Source: an uncultured bacterium
GTDB taxonomy: Bacteria; Eisenbacteria; RBG-16-71-46; JAFGJU01
Length of the DNA stretch: 64,000 nucleotides
Reading direction: 5' to 3'
Assembly (NCBI GenBank): GCA_964570935.1
Contig: CAZMZP010000050.1
Location: forward strand, 891-64,890
Each line of letters opens with the position of its first letter. Positions within the stretch are counted from its first letter, which is position 1. The position numbers were made by a program, and so were the translations under genes. A model generated the notes under the pieces. It saw only the letters and a list, made by a program, of their open reading frames with translations, had not been told where the DNA came from and ran no database searches. Shown here piece after piece: positions 3,107-62,053 of the stretch.

Positions 3107-4564
3107 CTACGCCACGCGCGCGGGCTCCTCGCTTTCTCCGGGCACGTGCGCCTCGTCCCCGGTCTCCTTGAGACCGTACAGCTTCATCCTGTAGCGCAGC
3201 TTGTCCCGTTTTATCCCCAAAAGCTCGGCGGCCTTCGTTTGGTTCCATCCGCAGATTTCCGAAGCCCTGATGATGAGCGCCTTCTCTATCTCTTCCACGG
3301 CGGACTCCAAAGCGAGGCCCTCTCTCGGAATCTCGCCGCCTGAGAGCACGCTCTGGATGAGGTCGACACACGAAAGGGCGCCGGCGGTCACCCGACCCCC
3401 GGTCAGCTGAACATGTCTGGCCTCGAGCGTCTCGCCGGACTCGAGCAGTATAATTCTCTCGAACAGGTTTTTCAACTGCCTAATGTTCCCGGGCCATTCG
3501 TACTCCGTCAGCGCGCGCTCCGCGTCGGGCGACATCCGCCTGAAGTTCTTGTGGAACACCTTGTTGAAGTGGCCCATGAAATGAACCGCCAGCGGCAGTA
3601 TGTCTTCCCTGCGCTCGCGCAGCGGCGGTACGCAGATGGGCAATACTTTGAGCCGATAGTACAGGTCTTCCCTGAACGCTCCCTCTCTCACGGACTTCTC
3701 GAGGTCTCTGTTGGTGGCGGAAATGATCCTGACGCTCACGGTCAAGTCCTTCGTGCCGCCGACGCGTCTGAACGTCATCCTCTCCAGCACTTTCAGGAGC
3801 TTGACCTGCACCTGCAGGCCCATCTCGCCCACCTCGTCCAGGAAGAGCGTGCCGCCGTTTGCCACTTCGAGCAGTCCCTGCTTCTGGAATCGCGCGTCGG
3901 TGAACGCGCCCTTCTCGTGCCCGAAGAGCTCGCTCTCCAGAAGCTCCGTCGGTATCGCTGCGCAGTTTATGTCCAGAAACGGCTTGTCCCATCTGGAGCT
4001 CATCTCGTGTATGTAGTGCGCCACGAGCTCCTTACCCGTCCCGCTCTCGCCTTCTATCAGCACGCTCGTGGTGTCGCTCTTCGCCACCTGTTCCGATATT
4101 TCGTACACGCGCCTTATGCTCTGGCTTTGCCCCATGACGTATTCACGCGAAAACCTGTCCCGCGCCGTCTTCCGCCTGTGCTGGAGCTCTCTCTCCAGGG
4201 AGTGCCTCTCCATCTCCCTCTTGACGATAAGAGCGATCTGCTTCAGGTTCACCGGCTTCACGACAAAATCGCAGGCGCCCAGTCTCATCGCGTTCACGGC
4301 CGATTCTACGTCGCCGTAGGCGGTCATGATTATGACGCAGGCCGGGTTTCCCTCTTCCCGCATCCGCTCCAGGACCCTGAGTCCGGTCGTGTCGGGCAGC
4401 CTCAGGTCCATCAGCACCATGTCCGGGTTTTCTTCCATGGCCAGCCTGAACCCCTCTTCCCCCGTCTGGCCGCACGTCACGGAGTAGCCCTCTTCGGCAA
4501 GAGCCTTGCTGAGAAAGTGCCTCGTCGTTTCCTGGTCTTCAACTATCAGAACCGTTTCAGCCAC
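3107..4564 (-). CDS. sigma-54-dependent response regulator (NtrC family enhancer-binding protein)
   Basis: 485 aa; receiver domain (LIVEDQ..., MDLRLPD), AAA+ sigma-54 interaction domain (GESGTGKE, ESELFGHEKGAFTDA GAFTGA-type motif), C-terminal Fis-type HTH. Confidence 0.9.
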   Translation of the reverse strand: MAETVLIVEDQETTRHFLSKALAEEGYSVTCGQTGEEGFRLAMEENPDMVLMDLRLPDTTGLRVLERMREEGNPACVIIMTAYGDVESAVNAMRLGACDFVVKPVNLKQIALIVKREMERHSLERELQHRRKTARDRFSREYVMGQSQSIRRVYEISEQVAKSDTTSVLIEGESGTGKELVAHYIHEMSSRWDKPFLDINCAAIPTELLESELFGHEKGAFTDARFQKQGLLEVANGGTLFLDEVGEMGLQVQVKLLKVLERMTFRRVGGTKDLTVSVRIISATNRDLEKSVREGAFREDLYYRLKVLPICVPPLRERREDILPLAVHFMGHFNKVFHKNFRRMSPDAERALTEYEWPGNIRQLKNLFERIILLESGETLEARHVQLTGGRVTAGALSCVDLIQSVLSGGEIPREGLALESAVEEIEKALIIRASEICGWNQTKAAELLGIKRDKLRYRMKLYGLKETGDEAHVPGESEEPARVA

Positions 4565-6518
4565 GTTTCCTGACCCCCTCGTTTCGTCCGGTCGAGCTCG
4601 TGTTCCCTTCTGCGGCAGCCGGCAGCCTCACGGTGAAGGCGGCTCCCTTTCCCGGCTCGCTCGTTACCGACAGTTCGCCTCCGTGAGCCCGCACTATCTC
4701 GTGAGTGATGTACAGACCCAACCCGGTACCGCCCGGCTTCGTCGTGAAGAAGGGCTCGAAGATCCTGTCCAGGTTCTCGGGCTGAATCCCGGGGCCGGAA
4801 TCGCCCACCGTGATTTCCACTCCGCCGCAGGACTCCGGCTCGGCTTCCTCTACGCTCGCCATGTCGATCTTGATCTCGCCGCCCTGCGGCGTCGCTTCCA
4901 CCGCGTTCCTTATCAGATTGATGAACACCTGCTGCATCTGGTCCGCGTCCATCTGCACGGGTTGCGGCTTACCGGTCACCGACATGTCCAGACTCAGTGC
5001 CTTGTCCGACGCCGAGGTCCCCAGCGACCTGAGCGCCCTCTCCACCACGTCTTCAACGCAGGCCTCGGCCAGAACGAGCTCTTGCGGATGAGTGACGCTG
5101 AGAAGGTCCTGTATGATCCGCTCGAGCCGCGCGACCTCCCTCAGCAGGAATTTCACGTTGTCCGCTTCGGGCCCGGTGTCCCCGAACTGCCTGCTCATGT
5201 ACTGAATTCCCGCGGCTATGCCGGAGAGCGGGTTTCTCACCTCGTGCGCCACGCTGGCAGCGAACCTGCCCAGCGCGGCCAGCCGGTCCAGCTGCCGCAC
5301 CTTCTCTTCCAGCTTCCTGGCCGGCCTGAGGTCCGTGAACGTCACGATCACGCCCCGGACGTTGTCCCTTTCGTCCCTGAGGAGGCGTGATGTCATCCTG
5401 ACGGGCACCGTGCCCTTCGACCGCTTGCTGACCACCGTGTCCACCGCGGTCTGTTCCTCCCCGTGGAGCAGTGCTCTCGTCACTGGCGATTGCTCCTCCG
5501 TCTCGGGAGGGATGAGAAAACCGCTCTTGGCGCCGGCCACTTCCTCGGCGCTGAAGCCCGTCACCGCCTCGGCGGCCTCATTGAAGGCCTGCAGCCGGCC
5601 GCAGAGGTCGAAGGCCACGAGACACTCCCCCATCGAGTCCAGTAGTCTCTGCCTGAACTCCTCACCCACCCGGAGAGCTCCGTACAGCCGGTTGCTCTCC
5701 AGCACTCCGGACACGTTGAATCCAACGGACTCGAGCATGGAGAGGTCTCCGGGCGACATCTCGTCCGCGCCCTTCCGCGCCGCCGTCACCATCCCCAGCA
5801 GGGGGAACACGTCGCACTTTACGCAGGATTCCCTTCTCCTGGACGGGTCGAATCCCTTCTCGTGGAAGCACAGCGTCGAGGAAGCCTCCCAGCAGAACCC
5901 CGGCCTTTCCAGGTACGCTCCGCACTCCTGTTTTATGCATTTCTTGGCTTCACGGCACGAGAGCCACTGTCGAGACGACACGAGCGGCACCACGGCCATC
6001 GCGTGGCCGGGGCCGGAAACATCTATCTCGAGCCGACGGCCGACTTCTTCCGACGGCATCACGGAAGTCTGCATGTGCCACAGTGACTCCCCGAGCTTGC
6101 CCTCGAGGTCGGACGGCCGCACCACGACTTCAGAGGTCCGGACCTCGTCCTCCCCGTAGACCGTGTGCCGTCCCTGCATAAGCCCCGTTTCCCTGTTCAT
6201 CAGCCAGAGCCCCACGTCGTCCATTCCGAGAACTCTGTGCATGTAAGAGGAGACGGTCTGAAGGGCCTCTTCCGGCTTCACGTTCGACAGCATGCTCTCT
6301 GCTATCTCGCGGACGACCGAAAGCTTGGTGTCGGTCTCTATCAGCCGGCGATGGGTGGTCTCCAGGGCGTCTATCAAATCCTGGCAGACCCTGCTGAGAG
6401 TTGTCTCGTCGTCCAGGGAGCTGTAGTCGGACGGGTTGAGAGTCGTGAAGGATCGGAGGTCCTCCACTCTCTTGAGGAGAGGACGGTTGTCTCTGCGGAT
6501 TTCCTGACGCTTCGGCAC
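4557..6518 (-). CDS. cytoplasmic sensor histidine kinase (GAF - Cys-rich insert - PAS - HisKA - HATPase)
   Basis: 653 aa; H-box HEVRNPLSGI, G2 box GTGLGLYITHEIV; no transmembrane segment; 8-nt overlap with the downstream NtrC-type regulator gene suggests a cognate pair. Confidence 0.9.
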   Translation of the reverse strand: MPKRQEIRRDNRPLLKRVEDLRSFTTLNPSDYSSLDDETTLSRVCQDLIDALETTHRRLIETDTKLSVVREIAESMLSNVKPEEALQTVSSYMHRVLGMDDVGLWLMNRETGLMQGRHTVYGEDEVRTSEVVVRPSDLEGKLGESLWHMQTSVMPSEEVGRRLEIDVSGPGHAMAVVPLVSSRQWLSCREAKKCIKQECGAYLERPGFCWEASSTLCFHEKGFDPSRRRESCVKCDVFPLLGMVTAARKGADEMSPGDLSMLESVGFNVSGVLESNRLYGALRVGEEFRQRLLDSMGECLVAFDLCGRLQAFNEAAEAVTGFSAEEVAGAKSGFLIPPETEEQSPVTRALLHGEEQTAVDTVVSKRSKGTVPVRMTSRLLRDERDNVRGVIVTFTDLRPARKLEEKVRQLDRLAALGRFAASVAHEVRNPLSGIAAGIQYMSRQFGDTGPEADNVKFLLREVARLERIIQDLLSVTHPQELVLAEACVEDVVERALRSLGTSASDKALSLDMSVTGKPQPVQMDADQMQQVFINLIRNAVEATPQGGEIKIDMASVEEAEPESCGGVEITVGDSGPGIQPENLDRIFEPFFTTKPGGTGLGLYITHEIVRAHGGELSVTSEPGKGAAFTVRLPAAAEGNTSSTGRNEGVRKRG

Positions 6519-7475: not shown

Positions 7476-8330
7476 CTATCTGACCCTGACGAAAAACAGG
7501 AACACAATCGCGGCCAGGAAGACGGCGAAGACTATCATCGTCAGGTGCCTGCCGTACTGCTGCACGAGCGGCCGCAACGCCGTCGGAATACTGCTAGGCC
7601 GCTCCACTGCCTTGGTACGGATGAACTTCTTCTTGGGTTGCGCCCCCGCAGGGTCCTGCTGCGGACCCTGCGACGCGGGAACAGTCTCCACCACGAGTCC
7701 CGTCATGCTCGAGTCCGGCGCGCTGCTTCTGGCCGACGCCGGGCCGGTAGTACCCTCGCCCAAAACGAGTCCCAGTCCCTGCTGGGCCGTCTCCCTGGCC
7801 TGCTCCACGGTTATACCCAGCAGGCCGGCGATCAGCACCCCGACCGCAATCACTATCACGAGGCCGATCAGGAAGCGAAGCAGACTCCCGCCGACGCTCG
7901 CGCGCGGCGTGACCATCTGCCCCTCTCCGGTCCGCTCCCCCCGGATAAGGAACCCGTATCGTCTGTCCTTGAGCGCGCCCTCCAGTTTGTTCAGGAATAT
8001 GAAGATCCTGTGCCACTGCGCGATTATCTCTTCGATCTCTTCCCTCGAAAACGGCTCCGGCGTGGCCAACGTGGTGAACGAGTTCAACATCTCGGTTATG
8101 TCACGCACGGCGGCAAGCGCCTCCGGGTCTATGCTCCTGCCTCGCTCGATGACAGTAAGCACCGGCAGGAGGTGCGCGATCTTGGCCTTCAACGCCAGGA
8201 ACTGCTCCTCCTGGGCGCTCTGTACACCTTCTTTACCCAGGCTGGTCTTCAGAAACTCCCCGAACACCACCCAGGTCTCGATGAGCTTTCTCAGTCTCCG
8301 CCTGCCGTTCATTCCGTTAGCCACGTCCAC
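7476..8330 (-). CDS. hypothetical membrane protein (N-terminal soluble domain, TM helix, Gly/Pro/Ser/Gln-rich linker, C-terminal TM helix)
   Basis: 284 aa ORF with protein-like composition, unlike the overlapping plus-strand ORFs; co-directional and directly downstream of tadC. Confidence 0.5.
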   Translation of the reverse strand: MDVANGMNGRRRLRKLIETWVVFGEFLKTSLGKEGVQSAQEEQFLALKAKIAHLLPVLTVIERGRSIDPEALAAVRDITEMLNSFTTLATPEPFSREEIEEIIAQWHRIFIFLNKLEGALKDRRYGFLIRGERTGEGQMVTPRASVGGSLLRFLIGLVIVIAVGVLIAGLLGITVEQARETAQQGLGLVLGEGTTGPASARSSAPDSSMTGLVVETVPASQGPQQDPAGAQPKKKFIRTKAVERPSSIPTALRPLVQQYGRHLTMIVFAVFLAAIVFLFFVRVR

Positions 8331-8412: not shown

Positions 8413-8769
8413 CTACCAGTATATCTTGACCATCAGGACATTCTTCTTGGGGACCACCACCTGATCCTCCACCTTCTGCCCCGTCCGCTTGGTCCCGTAG
8501 CCCTGCGAAAGGGCTATTTCGTAGTCAGATATCTTCACCAGTCTGCCGCAGTACTTGGGGCCGCTCCATGTGTAGACCTCGATGTACGAGGTGGAGGCGG
8601 CGTTGCTTCCCCACGGTTTCAGGAAAAACACTTCTTTCCAGACGTAGACCTCCGGCTCGACGTCCGCCGCAAGGACGTACGGTCTGTACACTCCGGCGGC
8701 CAGAGCCGGTACCGCGACGCACAGAAGCATGGAGACCATCAGACCCATCATCAGAACGCGTGTCTTCAT
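8413..8769 (-). CDS. hypothetical small secreted protein
   Basis: 118 aa; cleavable signal peptide (MKTRVLMMGLMVSMLLCVAVPALAAG); beta-rich mature part; 40 nt downstream of tadC. Confidence 0.5.
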   Translation of the reverse strand: MKTRVLMMGLMVSMLLCVAVPALAAGVYRPYVLAADVEPEVYVWKEVFFLKPWGSNAASTSYIEVYTWSGPKYCGRLVKISDYEIALSQGYGTKRTGQKVEDQVVVPKKNVLMVKIYW

Positions 8770-17281: not shown

Positions 17282-17452
17282 TTACGGCGTTGCGCCGAGT
17301 GCAGTCGCGATGGCCTCGAACACGCGGATAAGCTCGTCTCTGAGCAGGATTATCGCGGCGATGACGGCGATCGCAACCAGGGCTATGAGCAGCGCGTACT
17401 CGGTTATCGCAGCACCCTTGTTACCCTTGAACAGATTCTTCAGGAACCTCAT
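17282..17452 (-). CDS. flp: Flp family type IVb pilin
   Basis: 56-aa ORF absent from the ORF track: MRFLKNLFKGNKGAAITEYALLIALVAIAVIAAIILLRDELIRVFEAIATALGATP; conserved G/xxxxEY processing motif and hydrophobic core; strong SD AAAGGAGGA 8 nt upstream; heads the tad operon. Confidence 0.75.
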   Translation of the reverse strand: MRFLKNLFKGNKGAAITEYALLIALVAIAVIAAIILLRDELIRVFEAIATALGATP

Positions 17453-17682: not shown

Positions 17683-17698
17683 AGCAAACCCTATGCCA
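17683..17698 (-). promoter_or_regulatory. candidate sigma-54 (-24/-12) promoter upstream of flp
   Basis: Minus strand reads TGGCATAGGGTTTGCT versus consensus TGGCACG-N4-TTGCW; GG and GC elements correctly spaced; about 230 nt upstream of the flp ATG. Confidence 0.35.
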
Positions 17699-17943: not shown

Positions 17944-18801
17944 CTACGGCAGCAGGCCGGCCTGGCGCAGGAGCTCGCGAAGGGGCGCGAACTTGAACTC
18001 TCTCAGTAGGGTGTCCAGGCGGGCGTGTGTGCGACCCAGAAAGGCGTAGTGGTTCGGCCTCTTCAGCCACGACGTCACACGGGGCTGCCCCGGGTCCAGC
18101 TCCCAGGGGTGAACGCTCACGACCGCGGGCAGGCCGCCGGCGTTCAGACGACGCACCAGGAGCGCGGTCACGGCCACCGGGAGGAGACGTAAGTATGCGC
18201 CTGAGCCGAACGGCAGGTCCAGGCGGGCCACCCGACAGGTCGACATCGGGAACTCCACCAGGGTACCCGTCGCGATCCGCCGTCTGTGCGGGCTCACGCG
18301 CTCGCCCGGGATTCCGTAGACCTTGCGCCGTATGGGGTAGATGCTGGAGTCGTACAGGTGCCCGGTCTCGCCCAGGATGTCTAGGGCCCAGAGCGTGCCG
18401 GACACGACCGAGTAATTGGAGGCCCTGAAACCCACGACCGGGGCGCCGATGATGTCCTCCAGCACTGCCTTGGTTCTTGTGACCTCCGTTCTGAAATCGT
18501 CCTGACTCATGCGGTAAACAGGCCTGTGCGACCAGCCGTGCGAGGCCACCTCGTGCCCGGCCCGGAATATGTCCCTAACGAGCCCGGGGTGTCTATCGGC
18601 GTTCCAGCCTAGGACAAAAAAGGTGCCGCGCGCGCCGCGCGCGGCAAGCAAGTCGAGCAACCTACGAGTGTTGTCTTCCAACCGGGGCTCGTAGGAGCTC
18701 CACGAGGAGTAAGGGATGATGGACTCGAAGGACCTGACCTGGAAGTAGTCCTCGACGTCCACAGAGAATGCGTTGATGACGGATGGCTTGGTGACGGGCA
18801 C
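17944..18801 (-). CDS. polysaccharide deacetylase family protein (resembles the exosortase/PEP-CTERM-locus subfamily)
   Basis: 285 aa; N-terminal FSVDVEDYFQV and NodB-type motifs (HGWSHR); cytoplasmic (no signal peptide). Confidence 0.85.
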   Translation of the reverse strand: MPVTKPSVINAFSVDVEDYFQVRSFESIIPYSSWSSYEPRLEDNTRRLLDLLAARGARGTFFVLGWNADRHPGLVRDIFRAGHEVASHGWSHRPVYRMSQDDFRTEVTRTKAVLEDIIGAPVVGFRASNYSVVSGTLWALDILGETGHLYDSSIYPIRRKVYGIPGERVSPHRRRIATGTLVEFPMSTCRVARLDLPFGSGAYLRLLPVAVTALLVRRLNAGGLPAVVSVHPWELDPGQPRVTSWLKRPNHYAFLGRTHARLDTLLREFKFAPLRELLRQAGLLP

Positions 18802-23598: not shown

Positions 23599-24714
23599 CT
23601 ACTCCAACAGCTCTTCGCACACGTCGTGCGTGCTGCCGCAGGCAGGCCGGGCTGCGCGCGCCTCTTCCGTGGCCCGCCGTCCGGCGCCCACGACCCTGTT
23701 CCTGCCGGCCCTCTTTGCGCTGAACAGCGCGCCGTCCGCCGACTCCAGCAGAGCTCCGATGGTCTTGCCGTCTTCGGGATAGGTCGCGGCGCCTATGCTG
23801 CAGCTTATCTCGCCGCAACGCACCTCGGGGAAAATCTGAGTGACCACCGCAGACCGGATCCTCTCCGCAAGCACGAGGGCCCCTTCCTTCGGCGTCTGCG
23901 GCAGTATTATCAGAAACTCGTCTCCCCCGTACTTGGCCACGGTGTCGATGCTTCTTGCCGTCACCTTGATGACGGCCGCCAGCTGCTTCAACACCGTGCT
24001 GCCCTTGAGATGTCCAAACTTGTCATTATAATCTTTCAGGTGGTCCACGTCCAGCATTAGAACGGAGAAGAACTGGCGGAACCGCGACGCCCTGTCCAGC
24101 TCCTTGTGCAGAGCGTCCTTGAGGAACCGAAAATTGAACACCTGCGTGAGCTCGTCGGTGACGGCCTGTTCCTGCACCTGCGCGTACAGCTTGGCGCTTT
24201 CGATCGCCATTGCGGTCTGATTGGCCAGCACGCTCAGAACGCCCAGTTCGGCTTCGCTGAACGTGGCGGTGCCCAGCTTGTTCACCGCTATCAGGACTCC
24301 CAGCACATTCTCCCGCGCCTTCAGCGGCGCGCAGATGCAGCCGCCGGTGCTGGGTGCTCGCGGCCCCTCGAGCTCCGGCCTCGGCTCGTCCGACACCCGG
24401 GGTATCAGGACGGCCTTACCCTCCATCATCACCCACCACGCAATGCCCCTCTCCCCGGTGCGCTCGTAGCGCTCCATCGGCGCTTCCGCCCCGTCCGCCC
24501 TTCTCCGCTTCGCGTACTTCACGACGACCCCGTTTTCCAAGGTGATCAGGAAGACCGCTTCGGCCCCCAGCACCTCCAGGGCGCAGGAAAGCACCTTGGA
24601 AAAGGTCATTCTCCTGTCCAAGCCGGCAGTAATCAGACCCGTGATTTCCACCAGGGTGTTAAGGAATTTTTCTTCACGAAGCACAGAACTCATCCTTCGT
24701 GCCCCTAACCGCAT
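23599..24714 (-). CDS. GAF domain diguanylate cyclase (GGDEF)
   Basis: 371 aa; N-terminal GAF; intact GGDEF (KYGGDEFLIIL) with RxxD I-site (RSID) 5 residues upstream. Confidence 0.85.
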   Translation of the reverse strand: MRLGARRMSSVLREEKFLNTLVEITGLITAGLDRRMTFSKVLSCALEVLGAEAVFLITLENGVVVKYAKRRRADGAEAPMERYERTGERGIAWWVMMEGKAVLIPRVSDEPRPELEGPRAPSTGGCICAPLKARENVLGVLIAVNKLGTATFSEAELGVLSVLANQTAMAIESAKLYAQVQEQAVTDELTQVFNFRFLKDALHKELDRASRFRQFFSVLMLDVDHLKDYNDKFGHLKGSTVLKQLAAVIKVTARSIDTVAKYGGDEFLIILPQTPKEGALVLAERIRSAVVTQIFPEVRCGEISCSIGAATYPEDGKTIGALLESADGALFSAKRAGRNRVVGAGRRATEEARAARPACGSTHDVCEELLE

Positions 24715-24769
24715 GAAAATGCACCGTTCCGCACTGAACCGACGTTGAGAAAAGCAAGTTCTATGCCAG

Positions 24770-59703: not shown

Positions 59704-61995
59704 CTACGATGCGGTCTGTCCGTCCACGCTTCCGGTGATGAGGAGAGAGGCTTTTCTCAGGTCGCAGATGTCCTTGGGCCAGTATACCTGGACTGCCTTG
59801 AACTGGAGCTCCGGCGCCGGAGAGACGTATCTCACCGCGCCCAGCCGCCGCAGAAGGTCGTCTACTCTCCGGAGTATGGCGCCCCCCTCTCTGGGGGTCT
59901 GGGGGGAAATCACTACGAAGGTCGCCTCGCCGGTTCTGCCGACGATGTCCACCTCCCGGATGGTCTTCCTGAGTCCGCCGGAGAACTCCTCCAGGAACGC
60001 GGCTCTCCACTGGTCTCCGAGCCTCTGGAAGGCCCCGGTGAGTCCTTCGACTTCAAACACAGTGATGCAGAACCCTATCCCGTACCGGTCGTACCGCTTG
60101 GATTCCTCGTTTATTCTGGTGAGCAGCGTCTGCGCGCCGAGCAGGCCCGTTTCCCGGTCGGTCTCTCCGTACTGCTGGGCCTGCATGGACACGAACGCCC
60201 GTTCCAGGCCGTGAGCCGAGTATCCGCAGAAAGACCTGAAGAGCTCGCTCTCGGTCTCGTTGAACGACGGCGCGCCGCCCTCCTTCAGCCGGAGCAGGAC
60301 GCAGGCGCCCAGGCACCTCGTGCCGGCTCTCAACGGCCCCGCCAAGAACGACGTGACTCCCAGTCTTTCAAGTTCGAGGTTCAGGGTCTCGTCGGCCGCC
60401 TCACCCGAGATGCAGTTCATGTCCTTGACGCATTCGGCCATGAGAAGCTCCTTGGCTTTGGTCAGCCTCTCCGTCTCCTCCATGCCCTCGGTGCCGCCCA
60501 GTTTGTCCACCGACCAGCTTCTGCCGTCCTCGCACGCCACCAGACACGCGTCCGCCTTGAGGATCCTGACTCCCTCACTGGCTATGATCCTGACCACTTC
60601 CTCGACCTTCTGCGCGGACATCAGAGACGAGGCCACCCGGTTCAGCTCCGACAGCGCTTCCGCCTGTTCCCGCAGGCCGAGCATCGAGACTTCCCTGCCC
60701 AGCTCCTTTCCTATGAACCGCGCCACTCTGTCGAAGGCGCCCAGATAAGCTTCCAACTCGACGTTGCTGACGCGCACTGAGTCGAACACCAGCAGACCGT
60801 GCCAGCGGTCGGCCTTCATCGGGACGCATATGATGCCGAGCTCTTCGCCCTCCATCGAGGGCGCGACAATCCCGCCGGGAAGCAGCACCTGCGCCTTCCC
60901 GGACGTCAGGGCTCGGCCCAGGAATCCCTTTCCGCCGAATATGACTCCGGGAAGCGCCGGGTCGGCCACCTTGACCGACGTCGCGTACAGGACCAACCGT
61001 CCGTCCCTCCACTTGTCCGGCAGGTAGACGTAGCAGTCCCCTTCCACCCTCTCGGCCAGTGACGCGGCCAGGAACTGCACCTTCTCCGGGAACGAAACCT
61101 CCCTGATGAGCGCGTCCTCGGCGGCCTCTCTCAGAGTGAATTCGAGCGTCTTGTTCGTCACCGCGCTGTACTGCAGCGCCCTTTGCAGCGTCTCCGTCAC
61201 TCGCTCGGCCAGCTTCTCCAGCAGATGGAGGTCCTTGGCGTGGAATCTCTGCGGGTCTCTGATGCTGCTCACGTTGAGCACGCCGATGGTGCGGCCGCCC
61301 GCGACCAGAGGAACACACATCGCCGCTTTGACTTCACTCCTATCCCTTCCGGGCTTGAGAAGCTCGTTACCGGGTTCACCGGAAATGAGCATTGGTTTTC
61401 CGTCCCTGGCCACCCTGCCCGCAATCCCCTCTCCCATACTCTGCCGGGTGGAGACCACGGTCTCTCTACTCAGCCCCTGCGCGACCGCAATGCGCAGGTC
61501 CTTGCCCTTCTCGTCCAGCAGCATTATGGACCCGCACTGAGCTCCCGTGCATTCGATGGCAAGCTCCAGGATCCATCTCAGCAGCTTCTGCCTGTCTAGG
61601 GCAAGACTCAGGCTGTCGGCCAGTTTGCCCAGTACGTTGGATTCCTCCTCCCCCAGCGCCGGCTCGCAAACGGCCTGCGGCTCGGCCGCCGGTTTGGCCC
61701 CCAGGGCTTCTGCGGGTGTCAGAACCATGACGCCCGGGCCCAGCACTTCAACCAGAAGGGGTCTCGAATCGGGGTCGCCCAGGACCACTGCGTCCAGTTC
61801 CACCGAACCCAGCGCGGGCACGCTTGTCGTGGTAGGAAGCCTCATTATCTCACCGACCTTCAAAGCCACGGACGCCGCGTCCTGATCAGCAATCAGAACC
61901 AGCTCCCAGCGGCCGTCCTTGACGAGTGCCGGGATGAGGTCGAGGTCGGCCTCTTTGAGGCCGACTATGGCGAGTCTCTTTTTGTTATTGTCCAT
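59704..61995 (-). CDS. multi-GAF protein with degenerate GGDEF domain retaining the RxxD I-site (candidate c-di-GMP receptor)
   Basis: Start MDNNKKRLAIVG at 61995; the track start at 62049 would bury a sigma-54 promoter in the CDS; three GAF domains; C-terminal GGDEF-like domain with REVDIVGRTGEATF (compare PleD RESDVVARYGGEEF). Confidence 0.75.
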   Translation of the reverse strand: MDNNKKRLAIVGLKEADLDLIPALVKDGRWELVLIADQDAASVALKVGEIMRLPTTTSVPALGSVELDAVVLGDPDSRPLLVEVLGPGVMVLTPAEALGAKPAAEPQAVCEPALGEEESNVLGKLADSLSLALDRQKLLRWILELAIECTGAQCGSIMLLDEKGKDLRIAVAQGLSRETVVSTRQSMGEGIAGRVARDGKPMLISGEPGNELLKPGRDRSEVKAAMCVPLVAGGRTIGVLNVSSIRDPQRFHAKDLHLLEKLAERVTETLQRALQYSAVTNKTLEFTLREAAEDALIREVSFPEKVQFLAASLAERVEGDCYVYLPDKWRDGRLVLYATSVKVADPALPGVIFGGKGFLGRALTSGKAQVLLPGGIVAPSMEGEELGIICVPMKADRWHGLLVFDSVRVSNVELEAYLGAFDRVARFIGKELGREVSMLGLREQAEALSELNRVASSLMSAQKVEEVVRIIASEGVRILKADACLVACEDGRSWSVDKLGGTEGMEETERLTKAKELLMAECVKDMNCISGEAADETLNLELERLGVTSFLAGPLRAGTRCLGACVLLRLKEGGAPSFNETESELFRSFCGYSAHGLERAFVSMQAQQYGETDRETGLLGAQTLLTRINEESKRYDRYGIGFCITVFEVEGLTGAFQRLGDQWRAAFLEEFSGGLRKTIREVDIVGRTGEATFVVISPQTPREGGAILRRVDDLLRRLGAVRYVSPAPELQFKAVQVYWPKDICDLRKASLLITGSVDGQTAS

Positions 61996-62037
61996 TACCA
62001 AGCGCCCAAGAGGGACTTTGACACAAGCTCCCCACTG

Positions 62038-62053
62038 AGCAACACCCATGCCA
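62038..62053 (-). promoter_or_regulatory. candidate sigma-54 (-24/-12) promoter
   Basis: Minus strand reads TGGCATGGGTGTTGCT versus consensus TGGCACGG-N4-TTGCW: one mismatch, exact spacing; 44 nt upstream of the ATG at 61995. Confidence 0.45.

Follow-up and report, generated by a model that had tools for sequence, protein, structure and literature searches.

A two-CW-like seven-cysteine module nested in the GAF domain of an Eisenbacteria histidine kinase, a candidate metal or redox input

What is a dense cluster of cysteines doing in the sensor region of a soluble histidine kinase? The question is raised by a 64,000-nucleotide stretch of DNA from an uncultured member of the Eisenbacteria (GCA_964570935.1, contig CAZMZP010000050.1, positions 891 to 64,890 of the forward strand), hereafter the window, in which such a kinase is encoded on the minus strand next to a sigma-54-dependent response regulator. 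The original prediction, made from the sequence without database searches, had placed the cysteines between the GAF and PAS domains of the kinase, recognized no standard domain there, and proposed a metal or Fe-S centre or a thiol redox switch. Our analysis indicates that the segment is a divergent homologue of a curated domain, the NCBIfam two-CW domain (NF045718), in a variant that scores below the model cut-off, and that it is inserted in the GAF fold itself. On balance, we favour the reading that this module holds metal via two thiolate sub-sites and signals redox or metal status to the kinase and its regulator.

The cysteine cluster is real. The open reading frame (ORF) of the kinase (4557..6518, minus strand) encodes 653 amino acids, and its translation contains the segment quoted in the original prediction, with the cysteines, their spacing and the location of residues 185-240 at 5799-5966 all reproduced. 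Seven of the 12 cysteines of the protein fall within residues 188-235, a span of 48 residues. They occupy positions 188, 194, 199, 209, 217, 232 and 235 (C1 to C7; codons at 5955-5957, 5937-5939, 5922-5924, 5892-5894, 5868-5870, 5823-5825 and 5814-5816, respectively, all on the minus strand), with the spacing C-x5-C-x4-C-x9-C-x7-C-x14-C-x2-C. Two further residues of the segment that figure below are W210 (5889-5891, minus strand) and H219 (5862-5864, minus strand). If cysteines were as frequent here as elsewhere in the protein (0.8%), a span of 48 amino acids would contain at least seven of them with a probability of about 1.6e-7 per position. This is the single copy of the module in the window.

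The kinase consists of an N-terminal helical region, a GAF domain with the nested cysteine module, a PAS domain, HisKA and HATPase_c. The N-terminal region (amino acids 1-75; 6294..6518, minus strand) was delineated from the AlphaFold2 (AF2) secondary structure, with low-confidence helices at 12-24, 37-62 and 67-77, and from profile matches at positions 4-150; it is kept in orthologues and related kinases. The PAS domain (amino acids 287-396; 5331..5660, minus strand; PF00989, 51 bits), the HisKA phospho-acceptor or dimerization and histidine phosphotransfer (DHp) domain (amino acids 416-475; 5094..5273, minus strand; PF00512, 41.6 bits; H-box SVAHEVRNPL) and the HATPase_c catalytic domain (amino acids 524-635; 4614..4949, minus strand; PF02518, 107.5 bits) are readily recognized by Pfam. 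No hydrophobic membrane segment was found in the kinase, the maximum Kyte-Doolittle mean over 19 residues being only 0.98, in agreement with the solubility claimed originally. Identification of the kinase as PrsK (TIGR02916) was rejected: the match, at 108.3 bits versus a cut-off of 300, is confined to the catalytic half.

The GAF domain (approximately amino acids 80-275; 5694..6281, minus strand), supported by weak Pfam matches, AF2 and Foldseek, turns out to be split by the cysteine module (amino acids 185-240; 5799..5966, minus strand). The Pfam GAF alignment covers residues 82-264, thus crossing the cysteine segment, and the scores remain under the gathering thresholds (PF01590, 15.4 bits versus 22.4; PF13492, 17.0 bits versus 27); the insert splits the alignment. 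In the AF2 model of residues 1-285, built from three sequences, the GAF core is predicted with a local distance difference test score (pLDDT) of 70-88, whereas the cysteine segment, residues 182-239, is looped out at pLDDT <50 and lies between the GAF strands 173-179 and 242-248. All 50 Foldseek matches listed for this model in the Protein Data Bank (PDB) are GAF-containing structures, 24 of these at E<=0.001, and the best match has an E-value of 1.8e-5 at probability 1.00. Given the Pfam alignment that runs across the segment and the strand placement in the model, the segment is therefore an insertion within the GAF domain, located in the hairpin that joins the last two strands of the sheet, rather than a GAF-PAS linker; in this respect, the original prediction was wrong.

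An exact look-up of the kinase in public assemblies gave no record. A word-indexed search yielded two relatives, P0001 and P0002, the latter from a Candidatus Eisenbacteria metagenome-assembled genome (MAG), and 13 further loci (L001-L013) came from scanning the contigs of genomes and metagenomes. The three genome loci all come from Eisenbacteria (Eiseniibacteriota) MAGs, L002 being a complete chromosome. The conservation counts given here refer to the window together with the 12 loci that span the cysteine segment. In the window and all of these 12 loci, the seven cysteines, W210 and H219 are invariant and identically spaced, at an overall identity of 48-86% across the N-terminal 285 amino acids, so that the cysteine pattern withstands the comparison among orthologues on which the original prediction depended. 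The mean pairwise identity of the insert, 0.76, is second only to that of HisKA (0.84) among the parts of the kinase, compared with 0.51 and 0.60 for the flanking portions of the GAF core and 0.64 for PAS.

Is the segment a known domain? An exhaustive hidden Markov model search of 1.84 billion cluster representatives, with a profile made from the Eisenbacteria sensor region only, retrieved 112 proteins at E<=1e-3, and the same cysteine framework is present in 46 of the 113 proteins collected after that search. The consensus of the seven-cysteine relatives is CWExxxCxxxxCPAYxxxxxxRCWxxxxTxC-x14-CxxCxVF. The orthologue-only profile retrieves bona fide two-CW proteins that score above the 35-bit cut-off of NF045718 (P0063, 36.7 bits; P0083, 41.9; P0098, 39.0; P0113, 43.0), and the family was matched by 36 of the 48 aligned modules at E<=0.01, with no other family detected. 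When the Eisenbacteria modules were compared by hhalign to stand-alone two-CW modules, with the comparison confined to the module and the GAF flanks left out, the two aligned over 53 columns with a probability of 98.5% and an E-value of 1.9e-15, and the printed alignment is free of gaps. The spacing in the window is identical to that in the canonical members P0033, P0063 and P0098.

The module of the window itself scores 16.2 bits (E 0.01) and 16.5 bits (E 0.0085) against NF045718, with the match limited to model positions 41-75 of 80. Of the two Cys-Trp dipeptides, only the second (C209-W210) is present. At the position of the first, the window has C188-R and all 12 orthologous loci have C-R or C-K; C-R also occurs in several canonical GAF-nested two-CW members. 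The CPAY position reads C[GSRT]AY in the Eisenbacteria clade, which has gained an invariant motif of its own, C-x-H-E-[KQ]-G-F. This clade falls under the NF045718 cut-off and, therefore, automatic annotation of its kinases stops at 'GAF domain-containing' or 'PAS domain S-box protein'. There is no Pfam model for the module, and no Pfam family matches it at E<=1. The original statement that the segment is no standard domain is only partly correct: the segment is recognizable as a divergent relative of the curated two-CW domain, which is common in signalling proteins. We found no earlier description of the GAF-nested arrangement, although the domain is already catalogued, and our literature searches turned up no published characterization of the two-CW module.

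The module is found in two settings: it either stands alone, in front of output domains, or is embedded in a GAF-like fold. The cluster representatives that we examined contain 60 or more complete modules; one word-indexed search with an alignment as the query gave seven matches only. The 44 seven-cysteine proteins include domains typical of signal transduction: HisKA/HATPase_c (27), GAF (about 22), HAMP (19), PAS (18), GGDEF (5), CheW (2) and MCP signalling (1). In the nested form, the insertion point lies between strands of the form ..(V/I)PL.. and ..VFP(V/L)LGVL.., and in Fibrobacter and Chitinispirillaceae MAGs, such modules occur on PP2C/SpoIIE phosphatases (P0114, P0117). Among the stand-alone forms, P0083 consists of the module followed by GGDEF, P0099 of two modules followed by HisKA/HATPase, and P0098 is a protein of only 131 amino acids. 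In P0083 and P0099, the module is the sole recognizable N-terminal domain before the output, a domain arrangement that suggests a sensory role. In P0093 (929 amino acids), the nested module (amino acids 560-607) is found alongside Fer4, an [FeFe]-hydrogenase large-subunit-like domain, the PF04060 FeS domain and a kinase core; this protein looks like a sensory-hydrogenase-type kinase and was counted as context for the reading that we favour.

The pattern of cysteine variation is informative. In an alignment of 31 GAF-nested sequences, only the proline of the preceding strand, C3, C6 and C7 are invariant, and C2 is nearly so. The nearest kinases that lie outside the seven-cysteine group (P0004, P0006, P0007, P0009 and P0016), which have the same architecture, retain only Cx3C...CxxC, at the positions of C2, C3, C6 and C7; C1, C4 and C5 are jointly absent from them. 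This joint loss, with the other four cysteines kept, suggests that the module comprises two sub-sites, a Cys4 site (C2, C3, C6, C7) and a separable Cys3 site (C1, C4, C5). Both CW tryptophans belong to the Cys3 site. The same five proteins and P0030 share the layout of N-terminal helix, GAF, PAS and kinase core and carry a degenerate insert with four to five cysteines; this insert may be either a reduced version of the nested module or its ancestral state.

The canonical set of seven cysteines is present in 52 of the 60 complete modules. The remaining eight, which lack C5 (P0102, P0114, P0117, P0118, P0060, P0103, P0088 and P0034, several of these being PP2C proteins of Fibrobacter or Chitinispirillaceae), all have a substitute cysteine elsewhere, for a total of at least seven; the base rate of an extra cysteine among the canonical modules is 13/52. 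The substitute is located mostly at C7+2 or C7+5 (CxxCxC or CxxCxxxxC), and otherwise beside C1 (CC) or between C6 and C7. Thus, the number of thiolates is kept even when one of them moves, as expected of a set of metal ligands but not of a mere spacer.

Modelled separately from 48 module sequences, the module gives a confident and compact AF2 prediction, with a mean pLDDT of 83.7 and all five models at 78 or above. In this prediction, the two GAF strands close a structure made mostly of long loops and of short helices, which are located at C1 and ahead of C6/C7. Neither the 285-amino-acid sensor region, when searched against PDB sequences, nor a profile search of these sequences gave a match, and in structure and sequence comparisons, no solved zinc-binding or other cysteine-rich fold resembled the module. 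A structural zinc ribbon without a sensory role was an outcome that the original prediction had named as speaking against it; the module matches no known zinc ribbon or solved fold, and the zinc-ribbon assignment was dropped with neither a motif, nor a family, nor a fold to support it. Ferredoxin-type, radical-SAM and c-type heme assignments were discarded as well, given that CxxCxxCxxxCP, CxxxCxxC and CxxCH are all missing from the sequence and that neither a family nor a fold supports them.

How could such a module work? It probably binds metal, to judge from the cysteine pattern. Sub-site I would be the pair of knuckles C194/C199 and C232/C235, a Cys4 site likely occupied by Zn or Fe that scaffolds the fold. 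Sub-site II, adjacent to the CW tryptophan, would be formed by C188, C209 and C217, with His219 as a probable further ligand in the Eisenbacteria clade. We propose that sub-site II is the reactive centre, in the form of an Fe-S cluster or of a Zn/Fe thiolate site. The GAF hairpin would be reshaped when this centre is oxidized or nitrosylated or when it loses or gains metal, and the change would pass via the C-terminal helix of the GAF domain (amino acids 256-275) to PAS and on to the DHp helices. Autophosphorylation would be altered and, through phosphotransfer, the activity of the sigma-54 regulator encoded by the overlapping gene would be tuned. As to the cofactor, at least one Fe-S cluster and zinc alone appear equally plausible to us, each at somewhat short of an even chance, and any other cofactor is distinctly less so. 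A broader and more speculative possibility, which we consider rather doubtful, is that two-CW modules constitute an uncharacterized class of cytoplasmic redox sensors with two coupled metal centres on seven thiolates, and that the Eisenbacteria variant couples the redox or Fe-S status to sigma-54-driven genes for a Tad pilus, exopolysaccharide (EPS) and cyclic di-GMP (c-di-GMP). The two centres would be, for example, a Cys4 site and a three-cysteine Fe-S cluster, with one iron open or ligated by histidine, and the module would act either alone or as an allosteric trigger plugged in the GAF hairpin.

The main rival of a metal-based sensor is a purely structural double zinc finger, in which the seven cysteines and one additional ligand hold two zinc ions that rigidify the enlarged GAF hairpin or a dimer interface, while the signal is read elsewhere, by the GAF pocket or PAS. 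A span of about 50 residues with seven to eight ligands is the size of a two-zinc module, as in RING and LIM, and the related kinases that retain only Cx2-4C...CxxC knuckle pairs at the same place look like carriers of structural zinc sites; furthermore, AF2 folds the module confidently with no information on a cofactor, and the PAS domain is on hand as an alternative input. However, P0083 and P0099 have no candidate input other than the stand-alone module, the insert is better conserved than the GAF core that it supposedly stabilizes, and it shows no likeness to any solved zinc-binding fold. Moreover, zinc-thiolate sites can themselves sense redox, as in PexR (PMC12754779), so that even zinc in the module would not imply a lack of sensing. 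Overall, we regard a purely structural role as unlikely, albeit worth serious consideration.

Far less probable, in our estimate, are the explanations that replace either the signal or the metal. If the Cys3 sub-site bound Cu(I), Cd, Hg or As(III), the kinase would respond to soft metals or metalloids and not to redox; the separability of C1, C4 and C5 from the Cys4 scaffold is compatible with this possibility, and the sub-site is comparable to the trigonal S3 sites. Such sites are used by metal sensors of the ArsR and MerR types. Against this, no metal resistance or efflux genes were found beside the kinase among the ORFs scanned, and the occurrence of the module in many kinds of chemotaxis and c-di-GMP proteins fits better with a general cellular cue, so we assign this reading only a small probability. 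Slightly smaller still is the one that we give to a metal-free switch, in which oxidative stress would convert cysteine pairs to disulfides and so alter the conformation of the GAF domain. A cysteine-dense cytoplasmic protein with a CxxC pair (C232-x2-C235) could behave in this manner, but the count of seven thiols is odd and fixed, being held even by relocation, metal ligands typically show such Cx2-5C spacing and knuckle-like retention, and the module searches detected no thioredoxin-like or other redox-disulfide fold. That the segment is functionless, a cysteine-rich stretch produced by chance or an artefact of annotation, can be practically dismissed, considering the per-position probability given above, the invariance in the window and 12 loci, and the two-CW homology.

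Several points weigh against the preferred reading, that of a divergent two-CW module with two metal-binding sub-sites and a signalling role. The module contains no classical Fe-S motifs and has no match to Fer4 in Pfam at E<=1, and an in silico analysis cannot demonstrate a cofactor. The assignment to the two-CW domain has to contend with scores of 16.2-16.5 bits compared to the required 35 and with the loss of the first CW and of the CPAY proline; given this low score and the lost motifs, the Eisenbacteria clade may differ in behaviour from the canonical members. The two-sub-site model comes from patterns of evolutionary loss and not from S-S distances. The degenerate four-cysteine relatives resemble common structural zinc knuckles, and the module in its entirety could have a structural role. 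The proposed control of pilus and EPS genes is drawn from the gene neighbourhood alone. Finally, taxon names are available for few relatives only, and a link to an anaerobic lifestyle is not established.

The kinase gene is followed on the same strand by the gene for the cognate response regulator (3107..4564, minus strand), with receiver, sigma-54 AAA+ and Fis-type helix-turn-helix domains in Pfam; the start of the regulator overlaps the kinase stop by 8 nucleotides. NCBIfam matches of the regulator to AtoC, NtrC and PEP-CTERM-regulator-like families are all below the respective cut-offs, and its identification as PrsR (TIGR02915) was rejected at 378.2 bits versus a cut-off of 502.6. In its sigma-54 contact loop, the regulator has GAFTDA where GAFTGA is usual, a variant shared by its counterparts in L001 (9352-10902) and L002 (9415-10845). 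Genes for LptE-like and HolA-like proteins lie downstream of the pair. The order sugar transferase, kinase, sigma-54 regulator and LptE-like gene is preserved in L001 and L002.

Upstream on the same strand are genes for a polyprenyl glycosylphosphotransferase and two conserved proteins of unknown function, followed by a Tad cluster (TadC/B/A, CpaE-like ATPase, TadG-like, secretin, RcpC/CpaB, TadE and Flp pilin), an XrtA-system deacetylase and more EPS genes, so the pair indeed adjoins Tad pilus and EPS genes as originally described. The two conserved genes between the sugar transferase and tadC (7476-8330 and 8413-8769, both minus strand) match nothing in Pfam or NCBIfam. They encode a protein of 284 amino acids with a hydrophobic C-terminal tail, which is nearly unchanged in L001 (5687-6541), and one of 118 amino acids with a signal-peptide-like start. 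The polysaccharide deacetylase (17944-18801, minus strand) passes the TIGR03006 equivalog cut-off (311 bits versus 276) and, therefore, the EPS genes may be part of a PEP-CTERM-type system, as far as family assignment indicates.

Potential targets of the regulator were sought among sigma-54-like elements. One -24/-12 element, TGGCATAGGGTTTGC (17684-17698, minus strand), is located in the intergenic region about 230 nucleotides upstream of a gene for a Flp-type pilin of 56 amino acids (17282-17452, minus strand; sequence beginning MRFLKNLFKGNKGAAITEY...). This placement is weakly suggestive of NtrC-type control of the Tad pilus. Two more elements of the same form, TGGCAT-N5-TTGC, are found on the minus strand. 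One (24754-24768) precedes by 40 nucleotides the gene for a GAF-GGDEF diguanylate cyclase (23599-24714), and the other (62039-62053) coincides with the annotated start of a second such gene, of the GAF/GGDEF-like type (59704-62049). There is no excess of -24/-12 elements in the window, with five matches versus 3.8 expected by chance, and other activators could use such elements as are present.

The module is thus a well-defined candidate for a new metal or redox input that is not unique to this genome. Two-CW modules are spread over histidine kinases, chemoreceptors, diguanylate cyclases, CheW fusions and PP2C phosphatases, and we found no structure, Pfam model or experimental paper for them. 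What this locus adds is that the module can nest in a GAF hairpin, that a Cys4 scaffold can be told apart from a Cys3 site by the loss and relocation of cysteines, and that a clade of an uncultured phylum is missed by the cut-off of the curated model. If the module is a metal or Fe-S redox sensor, it would supply the input signal for numerous orphan sensors in those lineages where it occurs, and a new way to arm GAF domains.

The Eisenbacteria module shares with the curated two-CW domain the seven-cysteine framework and its spacing, the second CW motif, the xCxxCxVF ending and the kinds of signalling proteins in which it resides; it differs in lacking the first CW, in the replacement of the CPAY proline, in being nested in GAF, and in the added invariant C-x-H-E-[KQ]-G-F. 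The GAF-nested two-CW proteins of other phyla (among them P0033, P0038, P0044, P0055, P0114 and P0117) have the same insertion point but, unlike the kinase of the window, are mostly large membrane-anchored HAMP-GAF-GAF-PAS kinases or PP2C proteins; they keep both CW motifs and, in the Fibrobacter-type clade, C5 has moved past C7. Closer in architecture are the GAF-PAS kinases of about 650 amino acids (P0004, P0006, P0009 and P0016), which have the N-terminal helix and the insertion site in common with the window kinase but lack C1, C4, C5, the CW tryptophan and His219, and with these the putative reactive sub-site II.

Functionally, the module can be compared with CSK/Hik2, where a [3Fe-4S] cluster in the GAF domain gates the kinase (PMC6949291), with VnfA, a sigma-54 activator for which an Fe3S4 centre with GAF has been reported, according to the summary in PMC9542535, and with PexR, in which a Zn/Fe site of GAF senses H2O2 (PMC12754779). 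In these proteins, the ligands, one to four in number, come from the GAF core, the pocket or the N-terminal end; none of the three has a nested seven-cysteine mini-domain, and no sequence relationship to the module was detected. What they offer, for the module described here strictly by analogy, is the principle of a GAF domain whose cysteine-ligated metal centre gates the output protein, be it a histidine kinase or a sigma-54 activator, according to redox or reactive oxygen species.

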